Assembly (NCBI GenBank): GCA_943355025.1
Contig: CALRDW010000005.1
Span: 244 to 64,243, forward strand
From: Candidatus Magasanikiibacteriota bacterium
GTDB taxonomy: Bacteria; Patescibacteriota; Patescibacteriia; Magasanikbacterales; 2-02-FULL-50-9b
Direction of reading: 5' to 3'
Length of the DNA: 64,000 nt
Under the pieces are notes generated by a model that was not told the DNA's origin, did not search any database, and saw nothing but the letters and a program-made list of their open reading frames with translations. Made by a program: the position numbers and the translations under genes. Shown here one piece after another: positions 6,303 through 29,994 of this stretch (its first letter is position 1; each line of letters begins with the position of its first letter).

Positions 6303-6431
6303 CGAAGCTTACAATAATAACTTTTGGGACGCTTCGGTGCTCCCCCGGAATATCTGGGGTCTCAGCCGAGGAGAACGAATCCAAGAGACGTAGCTTCACC
6401 AAAACTCCCGATCACTTGATCGGGTTTTTTG
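6303..6431 (+). ncRNA. candidate structured small RNA of unknown class (about 125 nt)
   Basis: Bounded by a consensus promoter and an intrinsic terminator (cccgatca..tgatcggg followed by ttttttgtt). Internal hairpins: cgcUUCGgug, ccccgg/ctgggg and gtctc..gagac. The only ORF here runs through the terminator, so no plausible coding sequence. Confidence 0.35.
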
Positions 6432-8198: not shown

Positions 8199-8352
8199 AA
8201 AATAAAAAATCCTGTGAATAATACAGGAAAGATTGCCGCATAATATCTTTCCCGTTGCCGGGCTGGATGTGGCACCTGTCGCGCACGCCGCATGCGTCGT
8301 CGATGGTTGCCGGTGGGTCAGTGAGCCAGTGCTCTCGCCACTCTCTAGATAA
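8199..8352 (-). promoter_or_regulatory. SAM-I (S-box) riboswitch with terminator expression platform in the metK leader
   Basis: Minus strand reads UAUCUAGAGAGUGGCGAGAGCACUGGCUCACUGACCCACCGGCAACC ... GGUGCCACAUCC ... GAAAGAUA, matching the S-box consensus including P1 UAUCU/AGAUA. An antiterminator ggaaagat/atctttcc and a terminator cctgtattattcacagg plus U-run follow. Confidence 0.8.
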
Positions 8353-8379
8353 TTACTTCTTTAATTGTCGGACCTAATT

Positions 8380-9025: not shown

Positions 9026-9598
9026 CTAGAACTGTTCAATTCGACGCAGTTTCTGTTCCGCGAGCCACTTTGCCGAAACAGGCCCTGGCTGTTCAGGCGC
9101 ACGAGCCGTCAAATCAGATATCTCCCCAAACAAATGGAATTGCCACTTGCCATACGACGAAAGATCCCCAGGCGGCTCCATCTGCGCTTCGAGAATACTA
9201 ACACACCGCAATGCTGTATCCGGATCATCATACACCGGCGACAGCGTCGGTTCCGCTTCGTCGACCCGCGCCCACAAATCATCGAACAAAAATGGCTCTG
9301 ACGGCTCCGTGGCGCGCACAAGCTGTATCATCTTTTGCAGACGAAACCCTTTCTGCGCGCGCTTCAGTGCTGCACGGCCATTATCGTCAAACCCGATTTG
9401 AAACCAACGTTCAAGTTGTGCCCACACTTTCCACTGCGAAAACGGAAAATACTTTTCTGGATCAATTCGCTTCCACGCAACAGAAAGCGTATCACGAGTC
9501 TTCGTGTTCGCAGCCATAACAATAAACAAGAGCAGATGCAGCAGGAGCAACATCTCAAACTGATTAAGCGCAACCTGTCTGCGCACACTTACGGTCAT
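9026..9598 (-). CDS. hypothetical protein with an N-terminal signal or TM segment
   Basis: GGAGGG RBS before the ATG. RR followed by the hydrophobic stretch LLLLHLLLFIVMAA. No family recognised. Confidence 0.45.
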   Translation of the reverse strand: MTVSVRRQVALNQFEMLLLLHLLLFIVMAANTKTRDTLSVAWKRIDPEKYFPFSQWKVWAQLERWFQIGFDDNGRAALKRAQKGFRLQKMIQLVRATEPSEPFLFDDLWARVDEAEPTLSPVYDDPDTALRCVSILEAQMEPPGDLSSYGKWQFHLFGEISDLTARAPEQPGPVSAKWLAEQKLRRIEQF

Positions 9599-9679
9599 GA
9601 CACCCTCCGAAATAACGTCCCGATATTGGGTGCCCCAAATTTACTCCCTCGCGGGTGTGACGTCAACCCCTACATACTT

Positions 9680-10291
9680 TTATTGTGCGGCTGGCTGTAA
9701 CCCAACAAATTGAAGTGTGATACCGTCAATTAATTTTTTAACCGCAGCAACAGGATCTTTAACAACGCTCGTATCATAATTATAAATACCCCGCAGTTCA
9801 AATGCGCCCCCACTGCTTGCTGTTCCCACAAATTTTATCATGAGCATACGTGGATTATCATTAATACCCTTAAACCCAAGCTGCTCCCACATTTTCGCGT
9901 CTTTCGCAAATGTGCGAATTGTATACGTAGTAAACGGATCGGCTTTCCTATATGCTTCGGTCCCTGTTTGAATAAACCCAACACCGTCATCGCTTGGTGC
10001 ATCAGTGCGAATCATAAATTCTGCGCTTTTATCCGCAGGCTCAATATCAAACACAATAGACTTATCAACATCCGCGCCATTCGCAACCGCTGACCAACCG
10101 TTTGGTGTTGCCAAAGAAATTGTACGGCCCAATGTCGCAGTGTGTGGAACCGAAAGTTCCGCCAGTTTTTGAATTGCCCGCGCGCGTGCGGCCGCAACAG
10201 CTGCGAGATCAGCATTTGAGGTTCTACTGCAACCAGGGCCTAATAATAAAATAGTTGCGCTACAAATAATAATTTTCGTTCTGAGTAACAT
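9680..10291 (-). CDS. putative secreted protein or lipoprotein
   Basis: N-terminal hydrophobic segment ending LLGPGCS (non-canonical lipobox). No family recognised. Confidence 0.4.
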   Translation of the reverse strand: MLLRTKIIICSATILLLGPGCSRTSNADLAAVAAARARAIQKLAELSVPHTATLGRTISLATPNGWSAVANGADVDKSIVFDIEPADKSAEFMIRTDAPSDDGVGFIQTGTEAYRKADPFTTYTIRTFAKDAKMWEQLGFKGINDNPRMLMIKFVGTASSGGAFELRGIYNYDTSVVKDPVAAVKKLIDGITLQFVGLQPAAQ

Positions 10292-21216: not shown

Positions 21217-22485
21217 TCATGAACCAAAATCGCGCATGTTTCTTTTTTTTCTCTGATACGTAATCGCAAATCGATGTGCCTCATTACGAACTTTAACAAA
21301 AATATGTCCGTATAAACGAATCGCACGATCGAGGGCAACATTGCGACGATCAAAAACATATCTCACATTTTTTCTAAGCGCGCCTTTTGCAATTCCAACA
21401 ACTGGAATTGTTATTCCGTATTCTTTTAAAACTTTTACAACTGCATTCACCTGTCCTTCGCCGCCATCAATAAAAAATATTTCCGGCAGCGGCCATTCCG
21501 TGTGCTTAAGCCGACGCGTTAGTGTTTCCCGAAGCGCGCCAGTATCATTTGATTTTGTAAATTCTCGAATCTCAAATTTTCGATACTCCGATTTATCTGC
21601 TTCACCTTTATTAAAAACAACCATTGATGCAACCATTCCTGTTCCTGATAAATGTGAAATATCATACCCCTCGATGCGTTTAAACGGATTGACCGCTAAA
21701 TTCCTCGGTGGTGCGTCATCATCGCGATTGATGAGTGCGATATCCTGAATGTGCTGCAAAGAAAATAATTGGTTGCGAAGAATTGCCGCCTCTTCAAACT
21801 GCTCTGCACGCGCCGCAATTTTCATGTCACGCAGTATTTGTTTCTCCAAAGTCGTGCGGTCGCCATTTAAAAAAAGCTTCATTCGTCGCAATATTATTTT
21901 ATATGCTGGAGCGGAAATTGCGCGCGTACACACGCCTGGACAGCGTCCAAGTTGCGCATTAAAACAGGGGCGCGTGCGACCTGGCACACAATCGCTCCAC
22001 GGAAAAATTCGTCGCATCATTTCAAGCGCAGTGCGAACTAATTTTGCACCGAGAAATGGGCCCCACCGCTGTGGATAAATTTTATCCACAGTCGCGCCCA
22101 AATCATCAAGTTCTTTTCCACGCACTAAAACAACGCGCGGATATTCGTCTGCAGTAAAACAAATCCACAAAAAACTTTTGTCATCCTTTAATAAAACATT
22201 GTACGGCGGTTTATGTGCGCGAATTAAATTAGCCTCCATTATAAGCGCCTCAAGAACCGTTGGTGTCTCGACGTATTCAATATGCGTTATATCTGCCGTA
22301 ACCTCTTCGATGGCGCGGGCGAATGCTGTGCTGGTATGAAAATATGATGCGACGCGCGACTTAAGCGACGTTGCTTTTCCAACGTACATCAAATTTCCCG
22401 CTGCGTCATAAAATAAATAGACGCCGGGGGTGTCTGGCAATGATGCGCGATTCTGCACCGCAATATGGGGTCTCTGTAAACGCAT
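21217..22485 (-). CDS. uvrC: excinuclease ABC subunit C, short form lacking the C-terminal (HhH)2 domain
   Basis: GIY-YIG N-terminus (PGVYLFYDAAGNLMYVGKA), Cys-rich region, UvrBC motif and RNase-H-like domain ending at EAHRFAITYQRKKR. Confidence 0.75.
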   Translation of the reverse strand: MRLQRPHIAVQNRASLPDTPGVYLFYDAAGNLMYVGKATSLKSRVASYFHTSTAFARAIEEVTADITHIEYVETPTVLEALIMEANLIRAHKPPYNVLLKDDKSFLWICFTADEYPRVVLVRGKELDDLGATVDKIYPQRWGPFLGAKLVRTALEMMRRIFPWSDCVPGRTRPCFNAQLGRCPGVCTRAISAPAYKIILRRMKLFLNGDRTTLEKQILRDMKIAARAEQFEEAAILRNQLFSLQHIQDIALINRDDDAPPRNLAVNPFKRIEGYDISHLSGTGMVASMVVFNKGEADKSEYRKFEIREFTKSNDTGALRETLTRRLKHTEWPLPEIFFIDGGEGQVNAVVKVLKEYGITIPVVGIAKGALRKNVRYVFDRRNVALDRAIRLYGHIFVKVRNEAHRFAITYQRKKRNMRDFGS

Positions 22486-22552: not shown

Positions 22553-24568
22553 CTATTCTCGCGCGCCAAGTGCACGCGCAGTCAGAGAAGTGTTGCCACG
22601 AAGCATTCTGCGCTCTTCCAAAGCAGTTGTGTGTGCCCGCGCGATACGTGCCGCCTCTGCGAGAGGATCCGCAGCTTCAAATTCGGTTCGTGTATCAACC
22701 GCGTGCAAAATATTAATTTCAGCATCGCTTACCGTTTTAACACCATGCGCGATAAATTTATTTGCGTCCCACCCTTCAAAAAATCCACGACGCAAGAATA
22801 ATTCTGTCATAAACTTCTGATCGTCTGGTGCATCAAATCCGCCACGCAAAATATTTTCAGCAACAACCTCTTCGAGCGGCGTTGTAAAGTTTGATGCACG
22901 CCATGGTTCAATAATTTTTTTCATCAAATCACGAGGCGAAATAACCATTTTTTCGAGCTGGGTTTTCGCCGCAGTCATACCACGCGTTTTATTCATAAAC
23001 GCTTGACCTGCTGTTTTTCCAGAGAACAAATCCTGGGATTCACGAACAACAAGCGCAAGATCAATAAGCTTACTGTATGCTTCTGGTGGAAAATCCGGTG
23101 GCAAGCGCTGACAATCGTGCCGCAGAAGCGACGTTAAAATTAAATCGTAGGTTTCCGAAACTTCTGGATAGTCTACTTCCTCACCAACCCAGCGCGAACG
23201 AAACGCAGCGTTGAAATCTTTAACACCTGCATATTTTCCACCAAGGTTCAACGTTGAGATTACGGTAAAGCCTGGCTTCATAACAAATTCTTCCTCACCA
23301 TTTTCTTGGAGACGAAATTTTGAACCAACTGGTCGAAGTAAAATATCATTGATACGCCCGATTACTTCAGCAGGCGCAAGATTAATCTCATCAATAATAA
23401 TCGGTTTTCCGTCACGAAGCGCGCGACCAAGCGGACCATAATTAAATACAGTTTCTGTTACACTTCCTTGTCCAAGCAAAATCTTCGCGATATCAGCTTC
23501 CGGCACATCTGAAATACCTCGCTCTTTTAGTTCGAGTGCCATTTGTTTTGTTCGAACCGCAAGAAGTTCTGGGTCTGATACATTTTTTCCCGTTAATTTT
23601 AATTTACCCACCAAATCATACACAGATGCCTCGTCAGATGCTGAAAAAATTTCAGGACTTAGTCTGTCATACAACTCATCTGGATCCATTTTTGATGCGC
23701 CCGGAAAATAGGTCTCCGCATACTGCATCATAAAAATCTTTGCGGTGTGCCGCGCGATTTCCGTTTTACCTGAACCCAAATGGCCCGCCAACATATACGG
23801 TTGGTGCGCTCGCAAATTTTTCATGATGCGCTCGATTCGTTCTTTTGCTGATGAAAACTCAACAATACGATTCTTTGCGGCAGAGGACTGATAATTTTTA
23901 AGCGTTGCGTACCGTGCGATCATTGGTCCAATCGTATCATAACTGGCGAGCATTTCTAATTTTTTCTGAAGCTCAGCGCGCTCACGCCGACGATTATCAA
24001 TTAAAACACGATCAACACCAATCACTGAACCCGCTTTGCTTGACAATGCTTTGCGCTCAATGCGCGAAATTTCATAATCAAGTTTGCCAATATGCCCGCG
24101 GATAGTTTGATCTGCACGCGCGAGCTCAACAAGCAAATGTGCCCCCATTTGTTCTTTTTTAAAAACGTCTGCAATACCTTCGATGCGAGAAATTTTACGA
24201 AGCGCCTCTGCTATCTTATGCTTTTGTTTAGCAGATTCGTCCAACGCCTCCTGCATTATAGATAAATCTTCGACTGATTGAGGCTCTGTGCCCTCCATCG
24301 TCTGCATTGGAACATACCGATCACCCATAAAACCATCTGACAATGTCTCCGTTGCGGACTCATCAAAATATGAAGAGTTCTCATCACTTGATTGAGTATA
24401 TGCCTGACCCGACTTAGCTTGATCCGTAAATTGATAATACAAATGATACATGTCATCAATCAATTGAATCTTTTCCTCTTCTGACCGTTCAGAAAAAGGT
24501 CGCCCATCAACTGATTGCTCTTGGATAGACTCTGGGCCTGATGGTGATCGCGGAATTTCAATTCGCAT
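22553..24568 (-). CDS. large MoxR-class AAA+ ATPase with N-terminal coiled-coil and C-terminal extension
   Basis: Walker A GHLGSGKTE. Walker B IIIDEINLA. Sensor TVISTLNL. Start chosen at MRIEIPRS (M55). Confidence 0.6.
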   Translation of the reverse strand: MRIEIPRSPSGPESIQEQSVDGRPFSERSEEEKIQLIDDMYHLYYQFTDQAKSGQAYTQSSDENSSYFDESATETLSDGFMGDRYVPMQTMEGTEPQSVEDLSIMQEALDESAKQKHKIAEALRKISRIEGIADVFKKEQMGAHLLVELARADQTIRGHIGKLDYEISRIERKALSSKAGSVIGVDRVLIDNRRRERAELQKKLEMLASYDTIGPMIARYATLKNYQSSAAKNRIVEFSSAKERIERIMKNLRAHQPYMLAGHLGSGKTEIARHTAKIFMMQYAETYFPGASKMDPDELYDRLSPEIFSASDEASVYDLVGKLKLTGKNVSDPELLAVRTKQMALELKERGISDVPEADIAKILLGQGSVTETVFNYGPLGRALRDGKPIIIDEINLAPAEVIGRINDILLRPVGSKFRLQENGEEEFVMKPGFTVISTLNLGGKYAGVKDFNAAFRSRWVGEEVDYPEVSETYDLILTSLLRHDCQRLPPDFPPEAYSKLIDLALVVRESQDLFSGKTAGQAFMNKTRGMTAAKTQLEKMVISPRDLMKKIIEPWRASNFTTPLEEVVAENILRGGFDAPDDQKFMTELFLRRGFFEGWDANKFIAHGVKTVSDAEINILHAVDTRTEFEAADPLAEAARIARAHTTALEERRMLRGNTSLTARALGARE

Positions 24569-24641
24569 AGTTAAGCGAACAAATAAACAATGTGCTATAA
24601 TTGTACCACACTTTAAATGCCTTCTGAAATCTACGCGCTCT

Positions 24642-26585
24642 ATGCCATTTGAAATACGTCGTGTTGCTGGTCGTGTATCCGAAAAAGATACTGCAGAAAA
24701 AGAAGGTGACGATACTGCAGCACAAGACACCGGAATGAAACCCGAAGCCGGACGACCTGGCTATAATATTTTTTTTAATCGATTTGAAAAAACAATTAAC
24801 GGTTATTTTGGAACACCGGATGTTAAATTTACGATGAAGCCGGGCGGCTGGTATGTGGACTTAGAAAAGATTGAAGTGAGCGCTGACCCAAATTTTTTTA
24901 TTGATAAAGGTTATTCACAAGACGAGGCACTCTTCGCATCATTTCACGAAGCAGAACATTTTCGCGATATGATTCGCGAACCAGAAGAATACAAACGATT
25001 ATTTGACCGCATGAATAGCGAAAGCACGGTTCATCCAGCGCTGCCAAAAGCACTCCATACGTTATACAACTGTCTCGACGATGTGCTCGTAAATAAATGT
25101 GTGATGCAACGATGGAATTCAGGACGAAAAGCAAAAGATACGTTGTATCCAAAACTTTTTCAGAGTTCAGACCTCATGACCAACCCGTTTACAGGAAAAG
25201 AGGAGCCGGGGCATCGGCAATTCATGTATGCGCTTCTCAGAGAAGCGATGTTGCCAGACGAAACATGCACAGTTTCTCCCTATGTTCGCGAAGCCATTGA
25301 TAAAGTCCAAGCAAAAGGTGGTAAACTCAAACTCACGGAGGTTTTGACTGCGGTTGATCTTGAGGGTGAAGGGGTAATGAAGCCGATAGATCGCTTTGGG
25401 ATAATTTCAGGACTCATAGAGCCGACGTTTATTGAGATGTTTAAAAAAGACATTGAAACAATGAAGGAGCAGCAGGAAAAGAGCGGAAAAGGAGGAAAGA
25501 GCGGAGAGAAACCAGATGGAGATAAAAAAGGAGGAGAAAAAACAGATGCACAGCCAGATCCTGACGCTGAAAGCGCGTTTGATGACGATCCATTTAAAGA
25601 CGCTATCCCCGATCCGATAGAGTTCAAAGATATTCAGGATCAGGTACAAAAAATTAGAGAGGCACTCGCAAAAAAGAAAAAAGAAGAAATGGAGAAATTA
25701 CTTGGCGTTTCTAAGGAAGATTACGATGCGTACGCGAAAGATTTCAAAATGATTCAGAAATTTATCGCGGATTTATCGGGAACTTTTGATGCAGTTATAC
25801 AGCGGCGCAAAACAATTGAGCGTAAACTTCGTAAACCCGTTCGTGAAGGTGTGATGCTCAGCCCCTCACGCATTGCAACCGCTGTTGCGGAAATTAAATC
25901 CGGAAACACAGATCCTCGCACGATGCTTGACTATGAAGATCGCGAAGCAACACGGACGCGGCCATCAGATTTTGAATTTACAATTGTATGCGATGGTTCG
26001 GGTTCTATGAAAGGCGAGGGGAAAGACAAGATGCAGCGCCAACTATCAGTTCTTATTACTGAAGCACTTCTTGATTTTCAAGAACGACTCGAAAAAGAGC
26101 GCCGCAAGGGCGAGCGTATCAACCTCAATATTAAAAGCGAAGTGCGCATGTTTGACGAAAACGATCACGTGCTCAAACCTCTTGGCACGACGCTTACACA
26201 CAAAGAACGCGTTGCGATGCACAAAGTTCTCCGCGAGTTTCCTGGTGGCTCTAATAATGAAATCGCGACATTTACAAAAATGCGCGAGGAACAATTTGAT
26301 GCGGATCGCGTTGAAAAAATGCGAAAAGGCGACATTAAAAAAGTTATTCTCTGGCTCACGGATGGAGAGAGCGATGTAAATGCGATCCAATCTGAAATTC
26401 GCCGACTTGAAGCGCTCACTAAAAATGACAGCGATCAAAAATCGCTGGTAATCGCTGGACTTGGATTTAAAGGAGGTCAGGGCGCATTAACAACGTACGC
26501 TCCGAATGGCTATTACGGCGAGAGCTTTGAAAAAATTATTGAGATCTTTAAAAAGTTCCTCACGCAACTTCTCGATGACCTATAA
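24642..26585 (+). CDS. vWA (MIDAS) domain protein with an N-terminal HExxH metallopeptidase-like domain
   Basis: SFHEAEHF (HExxH). Acidic, Lys-rich linker. TIVCDGSGSM MIDAS motif and VILWLTDGESD. Confidence 0.6.
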   Translation: MPFEIRRVAGRVSEKDTAEKEGDDTAAQDTGMKPEAGRPGYNIFFNRFEKTINGYFGTPDVKFTMKPGGWYVDLEKIEVSADPNFFIDKGYSQDEALFASFHEAEHFRDMIREPEEYKRLFDRMNSESTVHPALPKALHTLYNCLDDVLVNKCVMQRWNSGRKAKDTLYPKLFQSSDLMTNPFTGKEEPGHRQFMYALLREAMLPDETCTVSPYVREAIDKVQAKGGKLKLTEVLTAVDLEGEGVMKPIDRFGIISGLIEPTFIEMFKKDIETMKEQQEKSGKGGKSGEKPDGDKKGGEKTDAQPDPDAESAFDDDPFKDAIPDPIEFKDIQDQVQKIREALAKKKKEEMEKLLGVSKEDYDAYAKDFKMIQKFIADLSGTFDAVIQRRKTIERKLRKPVREGVMLSPSRIATAVAEIKSGNTDPRTMLDYEDREATRTRPSDFEFTIVCDGSGSMKGEGKDKMQRQLSVLITEALLDFQERLEKERRKGERINLNIKSEVRMFDENDHVLKPLGTTLTHKERVAMHKVLREFPGGSNNEIATFTKMREEQFDADRVEKMRKGDIKKVILWLTDGESDVNAIQSEIRRLEALTKNDSDQKSLVIAGLGFKGGQGALTTYAPNGYYGESFEKIIEIFKKFLTQLLDDL

Positions 26586-26618
26586 TAGTCGATAGCAGAA
26601 ACAGCGAACGCGTTTTGT

Positions 26619-26816
26619 TTACCATTCCTTTTCGCGATCATAATCGCGCGCATCCTCGTCTGCCTGTTTACTGCCACGCCGAACAATCTCATCATCTTTT
26701 ACGTCTCCAAATTCGGGTTGCTGTTTATCTGGCAACGGAATCGGCTCTTCGTTTGGATTTGGTGCCTGGAGCGGTATACCCACTCCAGGCCGCTGTGGTT
26801 TAAAAGTGTGTTCCAT
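26619..26816 (-). CDS. hypothetical small acidic, Pro-rich protein (65 aa)
   Basis: ATG 8 nt after a TATACT -10, so leaderless-like. Convergent with the vWA gene. Confidence 0.25.
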   Translation of the reverse strand: MEHTFKPQRPGVGIPLQAPNPNEEPIPLPDKQQPEFGDVKDDEIVRRGSKQADEDARDYDREKEW

Positions 26817-26928: not shown

Positions 26929-29900
26929 ATGTTCAAAGGAACTTCGCTGCGGCGAATAAGCCCCATCTTTTTGGGTGTACTATTCGCTGCAGCTTTTTTT
27001 GTTGAAAGTGCTCACGCGCAAACAACAAGCACGACACCCTCCGTCACGATTCCGGCTGCCCCATCAGAATTAACAGGTTCTATTTTTAATAATGTTTCTG
27101 GTCCAAATGTTTCATTGCATGTGACTGATAACGCGAACAATGAAACCGAGTATCGTTTATATTGGCATCTCATAGGGGCTGCATGGCCGAGCACATTTCA
27201 GTCAACCAGCGCAATCGGTACAAGTGGTACATGGGGATTCCCTGCTAATTCAGGGGGATTTCAGTTGGCCACGCCCCCACAAAGCGGTACCTATGAGTAC
27301 CAAGTAAAGGCATGCAATTCTGCAGGCTGTTCTGATTCAAATATTGTACAAATTGCAATTACTGCAAAACCAGCTGCACCGTCGAATCTTAATTTCGATC
27401 CAGCCCCGCTCACAGACAGGATTTATTTGAAATGGAATGACAATTCCTCTGATGAGGCAGGGTTCTATGTTGACCGCAAATTTATTACTGACACAAATTA
27501 CGCGGGATCTCTCCATTGGGCAACACTTCCTGCAAATACAACAATGTTTACTGACATGAACGTTGTGCCTGGTCAGCGCTATGATTATCGTGTGTCGGCC
27601 TATAATTCTACGGGCACTTCGGATGCTGTCTATCGCTCGAATGTGATGACAACGCCTGCCACACCCGCTGACACAACTTCGCCATCAGTGCCTGCAAGTG
27701 TATATGTCACACTGATTCCGAACTCTTCAAGTGTAAATCTCTATTGGAGCCCTTCCACTGACAATGTTGGCGTCACGGGTTACAAAGTTTATCAGAATGG
27801 AATTTTTCTGCTCGATGTACCGAGCACACTCACCCCTTCTGTTGGTAACTTGTCATCAGGCCAATACTATTCTGTAGCAGCATACGACGCTGCCGGCAAC
27901 GTCTCAAACGTAAGTCCATCAGTTTCAGGAACAACACCGAGTAGTAATCCAACTTCCCCCACCTCGACACCAGTTATTACTGCGCCAATTCCGTTTGTGA
28001 ATACCACCTCAACTCCTACGACAAGCGCGCCGGTCATTCCAACGCCAACTCCACCACCAACCATGTCATATGGATCGTGGCCAAGTACACAAACAGATTG
28101 CCAAAGCTTTTCTGGTAGATGGTGTTCAACTATCGGTTCATCGTATAGCGGTGGCAGTGGCGGCTATTGTCAAATGGCAAACATGACATGTCCAGTGATG
28201 CCACGTTCAGGCTACATGAGCTGTTGGGACAAATCAGAGGTACCAAATGGCGGTAACTGCCCCGTCATGCCACAAAACCAAACAGACTGTACTAAGATGG
28301 GCAAGAATTGGTGCAGCAGTACCTATGGAGGTCCAAATAACGGTTGGTGCAGTCCTGACATCTGCCAAATGATGACCCCACCAGGCCAAATGACATGTCC
28401 GGATGGTAAAACTTTCGTAACTTCATTCGATAATTGCCCACGCACTAACGTGACAACTCCCCTTCCAGTCATTCCAAATCCTGAATTTACGACGTGCCCC
28501 ACTGGCAAAGTTGTTCGCAAAGGAGATCCGTGCCCAGCGCCGGATGCGACGGTAACTTGCGCAAATGGCACAACAGCGCCAACAATTACCGCCTGTCCAC
28601 CAATCGAAGTTAAACAGGATGAAATCACAAAGTGCTTGAATACAGGAAATGTGTGGTGCCCCGACACTAAAGGTCAAACAACGGGTTGGTGTCAGATGAG
28701 TCGCGGTCCGTGTGTTAAACCACTCATGGGACCGCCACTGCCTGAGCCAGCGGTTCAATATCGGCCGCTGACGGCGCGCGAGATTCGTGATATGGAGCGC
28801 ACACGCAAAAATTTTATACAGGAGCTTGGTCAGATGCAATCAGCCGCAAAACGTGCCAAGGAGGATGCACTGCTCACAAAGATTACTGCGGAGCGCAAGA
28901 GTATCGAGACCGTAAAGCTTCTTGATTCTTCAGCATTCGACATCATGTCGTCGTTTGGTGACGACATGACAGATTTGCGCGATGCGACATCACAGATTGA
29001 TACGGGTGGCGGAAGTGGGCTTGATGAAAAGCAGGAAGCAAAAGCCCTTAAGCAGATGAAGCAAGGCGCGAAATCGTTCGTTCGTACACTTACCGCAAAG
29101 AAAAGTCAGATTGATAAATTGGTTAAACAAGGCGTGAGCGTTGATTCAGATATTATTGATTTAGTGACACAGGCGCTTGAAATTGCTAATAAAGTTGGTG
29201 CGGCAACAACATACGACGATGTGCGCAGTCTGATGGAACAGATACCGAATTTGGCAGAGCAATTGAATGATGCGTTTCAAAAATTGGAAATGTTGTCTCG
29301 TTTGCCGCGCGCACTTGCGATTATTGACCGCGAGATCGTAAACACGAACCGTGTGGTTAAACAAGCACAAACACAGGCGCTCCGCCGTGGCATTCAGGAA
29401 AACGATTTGGTTCAAAAAATGTCACAGACACTCACAGATGCACGCACGGGTGCAGATTCAGTTCGTTCGGGCAAGGTTGCCGCAGACGACGTGTTCGACT
29501 TTATTCAATCGGATATTCTCGACAAGCTGCAGGATGCACGAGACACTGCGTCGGGCGTGATAGCGGTTGCAAACGCACAAGCAACGGTTGGCAAAATCAA
29601 AGTACAGATTGCGCAATACACAAAACGCATTCGTACATTGAATAAAGCAGGTCAAGATACCAGCGCCGCGAGCTCTCTTGTTGCAGATCTCAGCACACAA
29701 AACAGCTCTCTTCAAAATCTGACTTCGGCTAAATTAACTTCAGACACTGCGGAAAAAATTGTTGAGGCGCTCGATGCAATTCATCAAACAGTTCAAGATC
29801 TAGAGAGCGCTCTTGGTCTCGCAAAACCAAATGCAGTGATTGACGAGTTACGTCAGTCACTCAATCATGGTGGTCAATCGTTCGATGAAATTCGTGTGAA

Positions 29901-29994
29901 TGATCTTGAAAAATTGATTGTGCGTGCGCACAGCCGCGCGCACTTCGCTGATTCGTTGATTACGCGTACAAAAAATATCGCTCTAGCGGAATAG
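26929..29994 (+). CDS. large secreted surface protein: signal peptide, FN3-like domains, Thr/Pro linker, Cys-rich repeats, long C-terminal coiled coil
   Basis: Signal peptide FLGVLFAAAFFVESAHA. FN3-like motif YLKWNDNSSDEAGFYVDRKF. Repeated C..W C..G..GWC modules. About 400 aa of heptad-rich sequence. Confidence 0.6.
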   Translation: MFKGTSLRRISPIFLGVLFAAAFFVESAHAQTTSTTPSVTIPAAPSELTGSIFNNVSGPNVSLHVTDNANNETEYRLYWHLIGAAWPSTFQSTSAIGTSGTWGFPANSGGFQLATPPQSGTYEYQVKACNSAGCSDSNIVQIAITAKPAAPSNLNFDPAPLTDRIYLKWNDNSSDEAGFYVDRKFITDTNYAGSLHWATLPANTTMFTDMNVVPGQRYDYRVSAYNSTGTSDAVYRSNVMTTPATPADTTSPSVPASVYVTLIPNSSSVNLYWSPSTDNVGVTGYKVYQNGIFLLDVPSTLTPSVGNLSSGQYYSVAAYDAAGNVSNVSPSVSGTTPSSNPTSPTSTPVITAPIPFVNTTSTPTTSAPVIPTPTPPPTMSYGSWPSTQTDCQSFSGRWCSTIGSSYSGGSGGYCQMANMTCPVMPRSGYMSCWDKSEVPNGGNCPVMPQNQTDCTKMGKNWCSSTYGGPNNGWCSPDICQMMTPPGQMTCPDGKTFVTSFDNCPRTNVTTPLPVIPNPEFTTCPTGKVVRKGDPCPAPDATVTCANGTTAPTITACPPIEVKQDEITKCLNTGNVWCPDTKGQTTGWCQMSRGPCVKPLMGPPLPEPAVQYRPLTAREIRDMERTRKNFIQELGQMQSAAKRAKEDALLTKITAERKSIETVKLLDSSAFDIMSSFGDDMTDLRDATSQIDTGGGSGLDEKQEAKALKQMKQGAKSFVRTLTAKKSQIDKLVKQGVSVDSDIIDLVTQALEIANKVGAATTYDDVRSLMEQIPNLAEQLNDAFQKLEMLSRLPRALAIIDREIVNTNRVVKQAQTQALRRGIQENDLVQKMSQTLTDARTGADSVRSGKVAADDVFDFIQSDILDKLQDARDTASGVIAVANAQATVGKIKVQIAQYTKRIRTLNKAGQDTSAASSLVADLSTQNSSLQNLTSAKLTSDTAEKIVEALDAIHQTVQDLESALGLAKPNAVIDELRQSLNHGGQSFDEIRVNDLEKLIVRAHSRAHFADSLITRTKNIALAE

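Follow-up and report, generated by a model that had tools for sequence, protein, structure and literature searches.

We analysed a 64-kb stretch of genome (hereafter the window; contig CALRDW010000005.1, assembly GCA_943355025.1) from a bacterium in the candidate phyla radiation (CPR), Candidatus Magasanikiibacteriota. It holds two divergently transcribed genes, one for a MoxR-class ATPase and one for a protein that joins an N-terminal HExxH domain to a C-terminal von Willebrand factor A (vWA) domain bearing a metal-ion-dependent adhesion site (MIDAS). Relatives of this pair recur beside diversity-generating retroelements (DGRs) and arrays of leucine-rich repeat (LRR) proteins; the pair in the window stands without either. 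Positions are given in window numbering, and the genes are laid out as follows:

22553–24568, minus strand: ATPase gene, encoding a 671-residue MoxR-class (AAA_5) protein (open reading frame list, gene calls on three assemblies, Pfam AAA_5).
24569–24641, between the genes: divergent intergenic region of 73 bp with two overlapping extended −10-like elements.
24642–26585, plus strand: vWA gene, encoding a 647-residue protein with an HExxH domain, a charged linker and a vWA (MIDAS) domain (open reading frame, gene calls, homologue alignment).

The two long open reading frames (ORFs) reported in the initial annotation are confirmed by gene models of 671 and 647 residues, which independent gene callers produced on three assemblies of the same strain (ENA, the NCBI metagenome-assembled genome (MAG) GCA_943359715.1, and Logan); all three carry both genes in the same divergent layout. 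A longer ATPase ORF starting from a GTG at 24730 is possible, but the gene callers and the homologue alignment favor the ATG at 24568. In GCA_943359715.1 (L002:7985-9927), the vWA gene was also called as two ORFs of 538 and 109 residues, a split that probably reflects misassembly or strain variation; ENA and Logan have a single 647-residue ORF. The base composition of the pair resembles that of the remainder of the window. Judged by its sequence, the pair is an intact two-gene unit that has kept all of its catalytic motifs.

The ATPase divides into three regions:

23864–24511, minus strand: N-terminal helical (coiled-coil-like) region, about residues 20–235, including a conserved 'PF-ER-EEQ-L' segment.
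23099–23863, minus strand: AAA+ module, about residues 236–490 (alignment, Pfam, phmmer and Foldseek).
23759–23785, minus strand: Walker A motif, residues 262–270.
23381–23401, minus strand: Walker B motif, residues 390–396.
22556–23098, minus strand: C-terminal helical region, about residues 491–671, comprising the lid and a conserved 'DDQKF-TE-FLRRGFF-GW' domain.

Pfam AAA_5 (PF07728) matches this protein with 48.4 bits against a cut-off of 22 (E = 1.3e-12), the match being split into two stretches, and is present in all 58 ATPase homologues. The motifs on which the MoxR-class assignment was originally based are real and fall in columns that are invariant across a family alignment of 27 sequences, which holds Walker A (G262-x2-G265-x-G267-K268-T269), Walker B (D393-E394), sensor 1 (N441) and R459, a candidate arginine finger. 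The insert of approximately 90 residues between Walker A and Walker B carries an invariant, family-specific FSxSxEASVYDLVGKLKL segment in the same alignment. The AlphaFold2 model (predicted local distance difference test (pLDDT) score of 81) consists of long helices over residues 30–231, an AAA module and a helical C-terminal region. Within the N-terminal region, helices span residues 30–62, 99–127, 132–175, 185–207 and 214–231, with low confidence at residues 1–19 and 62–97. Because the model gives long helices over some 230 residues, the coiled-coil N-terminus that had been proposed is a reasonable description, without being a proven one.

Among solved structures, Foldseek placed NorQ closest to the ATPase model (E = 4e-9; TM-score on target 0.73–0.78), followed by CbbQ, Rea1 and McrB. 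A phmmer search of Protein Data Bank (PDB) sequences gave midasin as the top match (E = 5.6e-35), with a best single domain of 39 bits versus 26.6 bits for NorQ. We considered midasin as a special relative of the ATPase and dropped it, because this E-value is a sum over six repeated AAA domains and NorQ is structurally nearer. The NCBIfam models returned a weak GvpN-type AAA match and nothing else. Together, the AAA_5 match, the invariant motifs and the NorQ-like model mark the protein as a predicted MoxR-class ATPase with large added N- and C-terminal regions.

The partner protein is organized as follows:

24759–25496, plus strand: N-terminal zincin-like domain, residues 40–285.
24945–24959, plus strand: HEAEH motif, residues 102–106.
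25497–25973, plus strand: charged linker and helical spacer, about residues 286–444, corresponding to low-conservation, K/E/D/G-rich alignment columns.
25974–26582, plus strand: C-terminal vWA domain, with DGSGS at residues 451–455 (nucleotides 25992–26006) and T573-D574.

We collected 72 homologues of this protein; among the 72 full-length homologues from the fetched loci, the HExxH motif is present in 71 and the MIDAS motif D-x-[ST]-x-S in all. In an alignment of 31 homologues, H102-E103-x2-H106 is invariant (31/31), as are N143, D147 and N151 on a later helix, and the MIDAS residues D451, S453, S455, T573 and D574 are conserved. The window protein itself falls below the Pfam VWA threshold (19.8 versus 23.8 bits); VWA is matched by 27 of the 31 family members (best E = 5.6e-7) and VWA_2 by 16, in agreement with the initial assignment of a MIDAS vWA partner. 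A whole-protein profile searched against the PDB retrieved generic vWA domains and nothing specific to NorD or to the MIDAS domain of midasin.

The N-terminal domain modeled alone (residues 40–285) with high confidence (pLDDT of 90, predicted TM-score of 0.88) as three short strands, an HExxH helix and a helical bundle. The HExxH motif sits on the helix at positions 54–73 of the model, after the three strands, so that the domain adopts a zincin-like topology in the prediction, as the earlier metallopeptidase-like description would have it. Foldseek matches to the PDB are weak (E = 0.24–5); selecase and jannalysin, both minimal metallopeptidases, and IrrE head the list, which contains no NorD chain. 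Pfam assigned no family to this domain in the 31 members at E ≤ 1, nor in 10 more distant relatives. The DUF2201_N identity suggested for it was therefore rejected (PF13203 and PF09967 were unmatched in the 31 members at that threshold), and none of the 31 gave a Pfam match of the CobT, NorD or CbbO type. At E ≤ 0.001, an N-domain profile search returned 556 cluster representatives. Of these, the 150 listed are mostly 600–830 residues long, with a minority of 131–520 residues, and a vWA domain was confirmed in six of 10 sampled matches.

Nearly all homologues of the two proteins are from Patescibacteria/CPR, in which they span many named classes and occur sporadically rather than universally; the outliers are a distinct set from Syntrophorhabdaceae and one Woesearchaeota MAG. 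ORFs were called in every fetched locus and clustered, and linkage was counted in the 29 loci where the vWA gene has 2.5 kb or more of sequence on each side. The large ATPase gene lies less than 6 kb from the vWA gene in 26 of these 29, always on the same strand, and the other three are fragmented copies. This conserved neighborhood, a check proposed at the outset, indicates that the ATPase and the vWA protein are functionally linked. Close relatives have the ATPase gene followed directly by the vWA gene, and several of them are also bare or nearly bare of accessory genes. In Syntrophorhabdaceae (L029:2036-6439, L031 and L036), a gene of approximately 475 codons without a Pfam family stands between the two. 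At one distant locus, a gene for an AbiEii-type nucleotidyltransferase toxin (L039:12074-12694) lies between the vWA gene and a DGR-target ATPase gene.

The window is the sole divergent case among the loci examined, all others being co-directional, and its divergent layout with a shared promoter region is an exception peculiar to this strain. Both of the face-to-face extended −10 elements described in the initial annotation exist: TGCTATAAT at 24593–24601 (plus strand) and TGGTACAAT at 24608–24600 (minus strand), which shares two bases with TGCTATAAT. A consensus scan recovers the minus-strand TGGTACAAT site with its TG. The region holds nine promoter-like sites versus 7.4 ± 2.8 in shuffled sequences; because this count is no excess, we regard a promoter function for the two elements as plausible and go no further.

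CPR bacteria are especially rich in DGRs, which also recur around this family. The commonest neighbor gene in related loci encodes a reverse transcriptase (RT) of approximately 330 residues (RVT_1, E = 3e-19; 33 loci), usually with a bAvd-like gene of approximately 124 codons beside it. Our self-comparison script identified paired template and variable repeats (TR and VR) of 108–137 bp in 22 loci, with 82–100% of the mismatches falling on adenines of one copy, the TR. Of 79 related loci, 33 have an RT or a TR/VR pair. VRs occupy the 3′ ends of the large ATPase gene (in more distant clades), of genes for proteins of approximately 320–350 residues and of members of families c15 and c40. The 320–350-residue proteins have only their C-terminal ~225 residues in common with the DGR-target ATPases. 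Among nearer relatives, locus L022 (vWA protein 37% identical to that of the window) has both an RT and a TR/VR pair, and L020 (40% identical) has a TR/VR pair flanking the gene pair on both sides. Separately, L086:297-3083 encodes a 928-residue protein (P0014) that joins RVT_1 in frame with an AAA_5 ATPase sharing 43% identity with that of the window, and an Avd-like ORF lies immediately upstream on the opposite strand; the joined protein is either a natural RT–ATPase fusion or an assembly or frameshift artefact of a 3.1-kb contig.

The ATPase family is one already known from the DGR literature, a connection absent from the initial annotation. A CLec (C-type lectin) domain joined to an AAA ATPase is the commonest DGR-target architecture in CPR bacteria (Paul et al. 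2017, as relayed in PMC10907252), and a match to the 'Midasin' AAA domain has been noted for some CPR DGR targets (Wu et al. 2018, PMC5758913). The window ATPase belongs to the same family as these targets, with an AAA_5 core and a helical N-terminus, and comes from similar organisms, and the CPR DGR-target ATPases likewise come almost always with an HExxH–vWA gene. That partner goes unmentioned in the accounts of DGR targets in PMC5758913 and PMC8144416, the texts of which do not contain 'vWA'. Unlike the DGR targets, the window ATPase has no C-terminal variable domain of approximately 225 residues: BLASTP aligned it to them over residues 161–605 only, with their variable domain outside the alignment, and neither this comparison nor TR/VR self-comparison of the window found such a domain at its C-terminus. 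The locus also differs from theirs in having no RT, Avd, TR or VR.

At least 11 loci carry, in place of a DGR, arrays of LRR/FNIP-repeat paralogues (one to nine) around the pair. A short tag, '(L/I)-x-NPF' or '...(E)NPF...', is common to the first 25 residues of the LRR proteins and of the c15 and c40 targets (examples in L017:4318-6943 and 9257-9889, L024:1534-7934, L022:5983-6795, L005:15229-16362 and L018:11874-20928). The tag was present in 24 of 32 accessory proteins versus eight of 800 other genes, and those eight are also system-adjacent, two of them being family ATPases. It is possibly a docking or cleavage site. Accessory genes in the relatives are mostly co-directional with the pair, and no client gene is conserved beside the pair across the Patescibacteria loci. 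The company of DGRs and LRR arrays favors a recognition- or conflict-type system, in defense or host interaction, over a housekeeping chelatase or NorQ context. DGR-variable proteins, LRR arrays and NPF tags together point to ligand recognition rather than cofactor insertion. To this extent, they bear out the idea of a conflict system with which the locus was first described; membership of the ternary VMAP type, to which we return below, does not follow, as the window has no third gene and its matches to PADLOC defense models are noise (E = 0.0045–0.011).

On this evidence we read the pair as the conserved core of a modular MoxR–vWA recognition or processing machine, present here without a linked sensor, and give this reading a probability of roughly 0.55. 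Several observations weigh against it. The window lacks every accessory feature of the relatives: tblastn of the 64 kb with RT, Avd, LRR, c4, c15 and c40 queries returned unrelated ABC-type family matches and nothing relevant; the script that found TR/VR pairs in 22 related loci found none here; the hidden Markov model (HMM) of the NPF tag matched no window ORF; and a regular-expression scan showed no N-terminal tag, the one NPF being internal and unconserved in the vWA protein. The gene neighbors are largely housekeeping, with clpB-like, ftsL-like, rsmH, mraZ and uvrC genes on one side and a 1,021-residue secreted fn3 protein, a membrane protein, a trmA-like methyltransferase and pyrimidine genes on the other. 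The protease fold compares weakly with solved structures (best Foldseek E = 0.24), and D147 is no more than a candidate for its third metal ligand; by sequence, the N-domain profile matched nothing in the PDB up to E = 10, and the full-length single sequence gave no match on the N-domain. In several Syntrophorhabdaceae loci (for example L029 and L031), where the gene context differs from that of the Patescibacteria, GlcD/GlcF-like FAD-binding and CCG-domain oxidoreductase genes precede the pair (the CCG subunit only in L037), an arrangement that fits a maturation chaperone. Finally, the family is known from sequences and predicted structures alone.

What the data establish is the identity of the domains, the conservation of their motifs, the linkage of the two genes and the company of DGRs and LRR arrays in relatives but not in the window; ring assembly, contact between ring and vWA domain, protease activity and biological role are inferences. 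The proposed mechanism borrows from better-studied assemblies. In NorQD, the pore of the ring receives a 'finger' of the vWA domain, and a linker of the vWA partner is remodeled by the ring (PMC13036017). We infer, from the parallel with NorQ and CbbQ, that the ATPase forms a hexameric AAA_5 ring that would engage the C-terminal vWA domain of its partner, the MIDAS site of which would bind an acidic client residue. Hydrolysis of ATP would then pull or twist the long charged linker, and this movement would control or position the N-terminal zincin-like domain, the likely cutter of the client or of a protein associated with it. In relatives, clients or sensors would be encoded in the same locus and be of interchangeable, mostly NPF-tagged kinds: a DGR-rewritten C-terminal domain fused to the ATPase, free-standing DGR-diversified proteins or arrays of LRR paralogues. 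For the pair in the window, the clients may be encoded elsewhere in the genome, or there may be one fixed client. More tentatively, the same core could be the fixed signaling and effector part of a cytoplasmic, receptor-like CPR system into which NPF-tagged sensors plug, such that ligand binding would lead to ATP-driven protease activation; it would be descended from, or shared with, phage modules, and the window would have kept the core without linked sensors. We regard this fuller version as possible, at less than even odds.

The pair might instead be a maturation chaperone of the NorQD, CbbQO or CobST type, in which ring and vWA adaptor would remodel one fixed enzyme and the HExxH motif would bind metal without cutting. 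NorQ and CbbQ are the best structural matches of the ATPase, the order of N-domain, linker and C-terminal vWA domain parallels NorD (with CbbQ/CbbO similarly arranged), and the action of the NorQ ring on the NorD linker is the very parallel that we propose for the charged linker here. The likeness of the N-domain to phage 'CobT-like' proteins, the housekeeping genes around the window pair and the oxidoreductase neighbors in Syntrophorhabdaceae agree with such a role. Against it, no client gene recurs beside the pair across the Patescibacteria loci, where the recurrent neighbors are DGRs, DGR targets and LRR arrays; no nor or cbb genes lie near the window pair, and the orthologues are not confined to housekeeping surroundings. 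Unlike NorQD and CbbQO, the window pair has an N-domain unrelated to NorD by fold search and carrying HExxH, lacks any Pfam match of their partner types and has an ATPase with extra termini. Its sporadic occurrence in CPR also sits poorly with a chaperone, and we consider this explanation unlikely.

The N-domain has its clearest structural counterparts in viruses. Against predicted viral structures in BFVD, it matched the N-terminal regions of vWA proteins in the Haloarcula viruses HCTV-2 and HHTV-2 and phage 'CobT-like' proteins with probabilities of 0.99–1.00 and TM-scores on the query of up to 0.58. HHTV-2 gp2 has HEVQH, an 'NVLEDN' motif and an acidic tail, with a separate vWA gene after it and an AAA gene near. 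In the Ralstonia jumbo phage RsoM2USA, a MoxR-type gene encoding 351 residues is followed by gp445 (635 residues), which has HEVGH, 'NIVED', an acidic linker and a MIDAS vWA domain. Aligned by hhalign, the N-domain profile matched the RsoM2USA protein (E = 3.8e-4) with the HExxH and N-x-[LIV]-[DE]-D motifs in register; it gave no alignment to the single sequence of HHTV-2 gp2 (probability 0.8%), though structure and motifs agree. These domains thus have in common with the window's a fold and an HExxH followed by N-x-[LIV]-[DE]-D on a later helix, and the phage pairs the same union of an AAA_5/MoxR ATPase with an adjoining protein of N-terminal HExxH, acidic linker and C-terminal MIDAS vWA domain. 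A MoxR and metallopeptidase–vWA pair is already known in group 2.2 jumbo phages, where a role in virion assembly has been proposed (Iyer et al. 2021, Viruses, PMC7824862), a precedent that the initial annotation had missed; our comparison used HHTV-2 gp2 and RsoM2USA gp445 rather than the exact proteins named there.

These likenesses allow a reading of the pair as a leftover phage morphogenesis module, either domesticated or part of a decaying prophage. We consider this very improbable. The pair had no relatives in 2.9 million IMG/VR viral contigs, tblastn of the vWA protein or its N-domain had no match in 50,697 phage records, and the phage and window pairs are too dissimilar in sequence for BLAST. 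Neither in the window nor in relatives is the pair bordered by phage genes; its neighbors place it in a cellular rather than viral context, and its catalytic motifs are intact and conserved over many Patescibacteria classes. The phage MoxR homologues are short (351–460 residues), without the helical N-terminus of approximately 230 residues and the C-terminal domain of the window ATPase. The phage pairs have a proposed function in virion assembly, whereas the cellular family is linked to DGRs and LRR arrays and has no members in viral contigs.

The initial annotation had also proposed a small ORF downstream as a third component:

26619–26816, minus strand: acidic ORF of 65 codons, at 33 bp from the vWA stop codon and present in the gene calls of three assemblies.

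MoxR–vWA couples with peptidase effectors are established, and fusion of a metallopeptidase to the vWA protein is a rare variant (Kaur et al. 2020, eLife, PMC7159879); DGR-diversified vWA–MoxR conflict systems with CLec sensors have also been described (Dore et al. 2024, PMC10907252). The window pair resembles the ternary VMAP systems in combining a MoxR–vWA couple with a peptidase-like domain, and some VMAP systems have DGR-diversified CLec sensors. It differs in having no VMAP or VMAP-like protein, no conserved third gene, no PADLOC model and an ATPase of twice the usual size, and its family is centered on single-celled Patescibacteria with small genomes, whereas VMAP systems belong to multicellular bacteria. 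A VMAP-style ternary system with the 65-residue product as effector or adaptor is scarcely credible despite the gene calls and proximity, given that the ORF has homologues in the same strain only among approximately 90 related loci, has no Pfam, NCBIfam or PADLOC match and lies on the strand opposite the vWA gene, unlike the mostly co-directional accessory genes of relatives. We rejected it as a component because it is strain-specific and missed by the NPF-tag HMM; a superficial likeness of its opening MEHTFKP to the tag was considered and dropped.

Other features of the window were recorded in passing. The secreted protein beside the vWA gene (26929–29994, plus strand; 1,021 residues) has a signal-peptide-like N-terminus, fn3 and chitinase-A-N-type domains, Cys-rich repeats and long C-terminal helices; among the loci examined, it occurs in the same strain only and is unlinked to the pair elsewhere. 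On the other side, 21217–22485 (minus strand) encodes a short UvrC homologue of 422 residues with GIY-YIG, UVR and RNase-H-like endonuclease domains, without the C-terminal helix-hairpin-helix region. Two RNA elements lie farther off: a DUF3800-V RNA (Rfam) at 6303–6398 (plus strand; 62.8 bits versus a gathering score of 37.4) and an S-adenosylmethionine riboswitch (S-box) aptamer at 8240–8355 (minus strand; 52.2 versus 44.4 bits).

MoxR–vWA couples, metallopeptidase–vWA partners in jumbo phages, CPR AAA–CLec DGR targets and DGR-diversified vWA–MoxR systems are all already known. Midasin (Rea1/Mdn1) offers a further parallel, being likewise an AAA_5 ring with an acidic linker and a MIDAS and the best PDB sequence match of the ATPase; it is one polypeptide with six AAA domains, whereas in the window the ATPase has one AAA domain and the MIDAS lies on a separate protein, the vWA domain of which shows no specific midasin similarity. 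What appears to be undescribed in the accessible literature is the consistent pairing of CPR DGR-target ATPases with a zincin–vWA protein, as well as the replacement of DGR sensors by LRR arrays, the common NPF tag and the existence of sensor-less cores. The copy in the window is the more modest part of this picture, an intact, sensor-less and ordinary but rearranged member of its family, and the interest lies in the family-level pattern. Because the same core occurs with DGRs, with LRR arrays or with no sensor, the family is tied both to the vWA–MoxR conflict systems of multicellular bacteria and to the phage pairs. The NPF N-terminal tag provides a specific handle for experiments, and the pairing of the ATPase with a protease-like vWA protein offers a testable mechanism for CPR DGR targets, in which a signal would pass from sensor to MoxR ring, to vWA adaptor and on to the protease.

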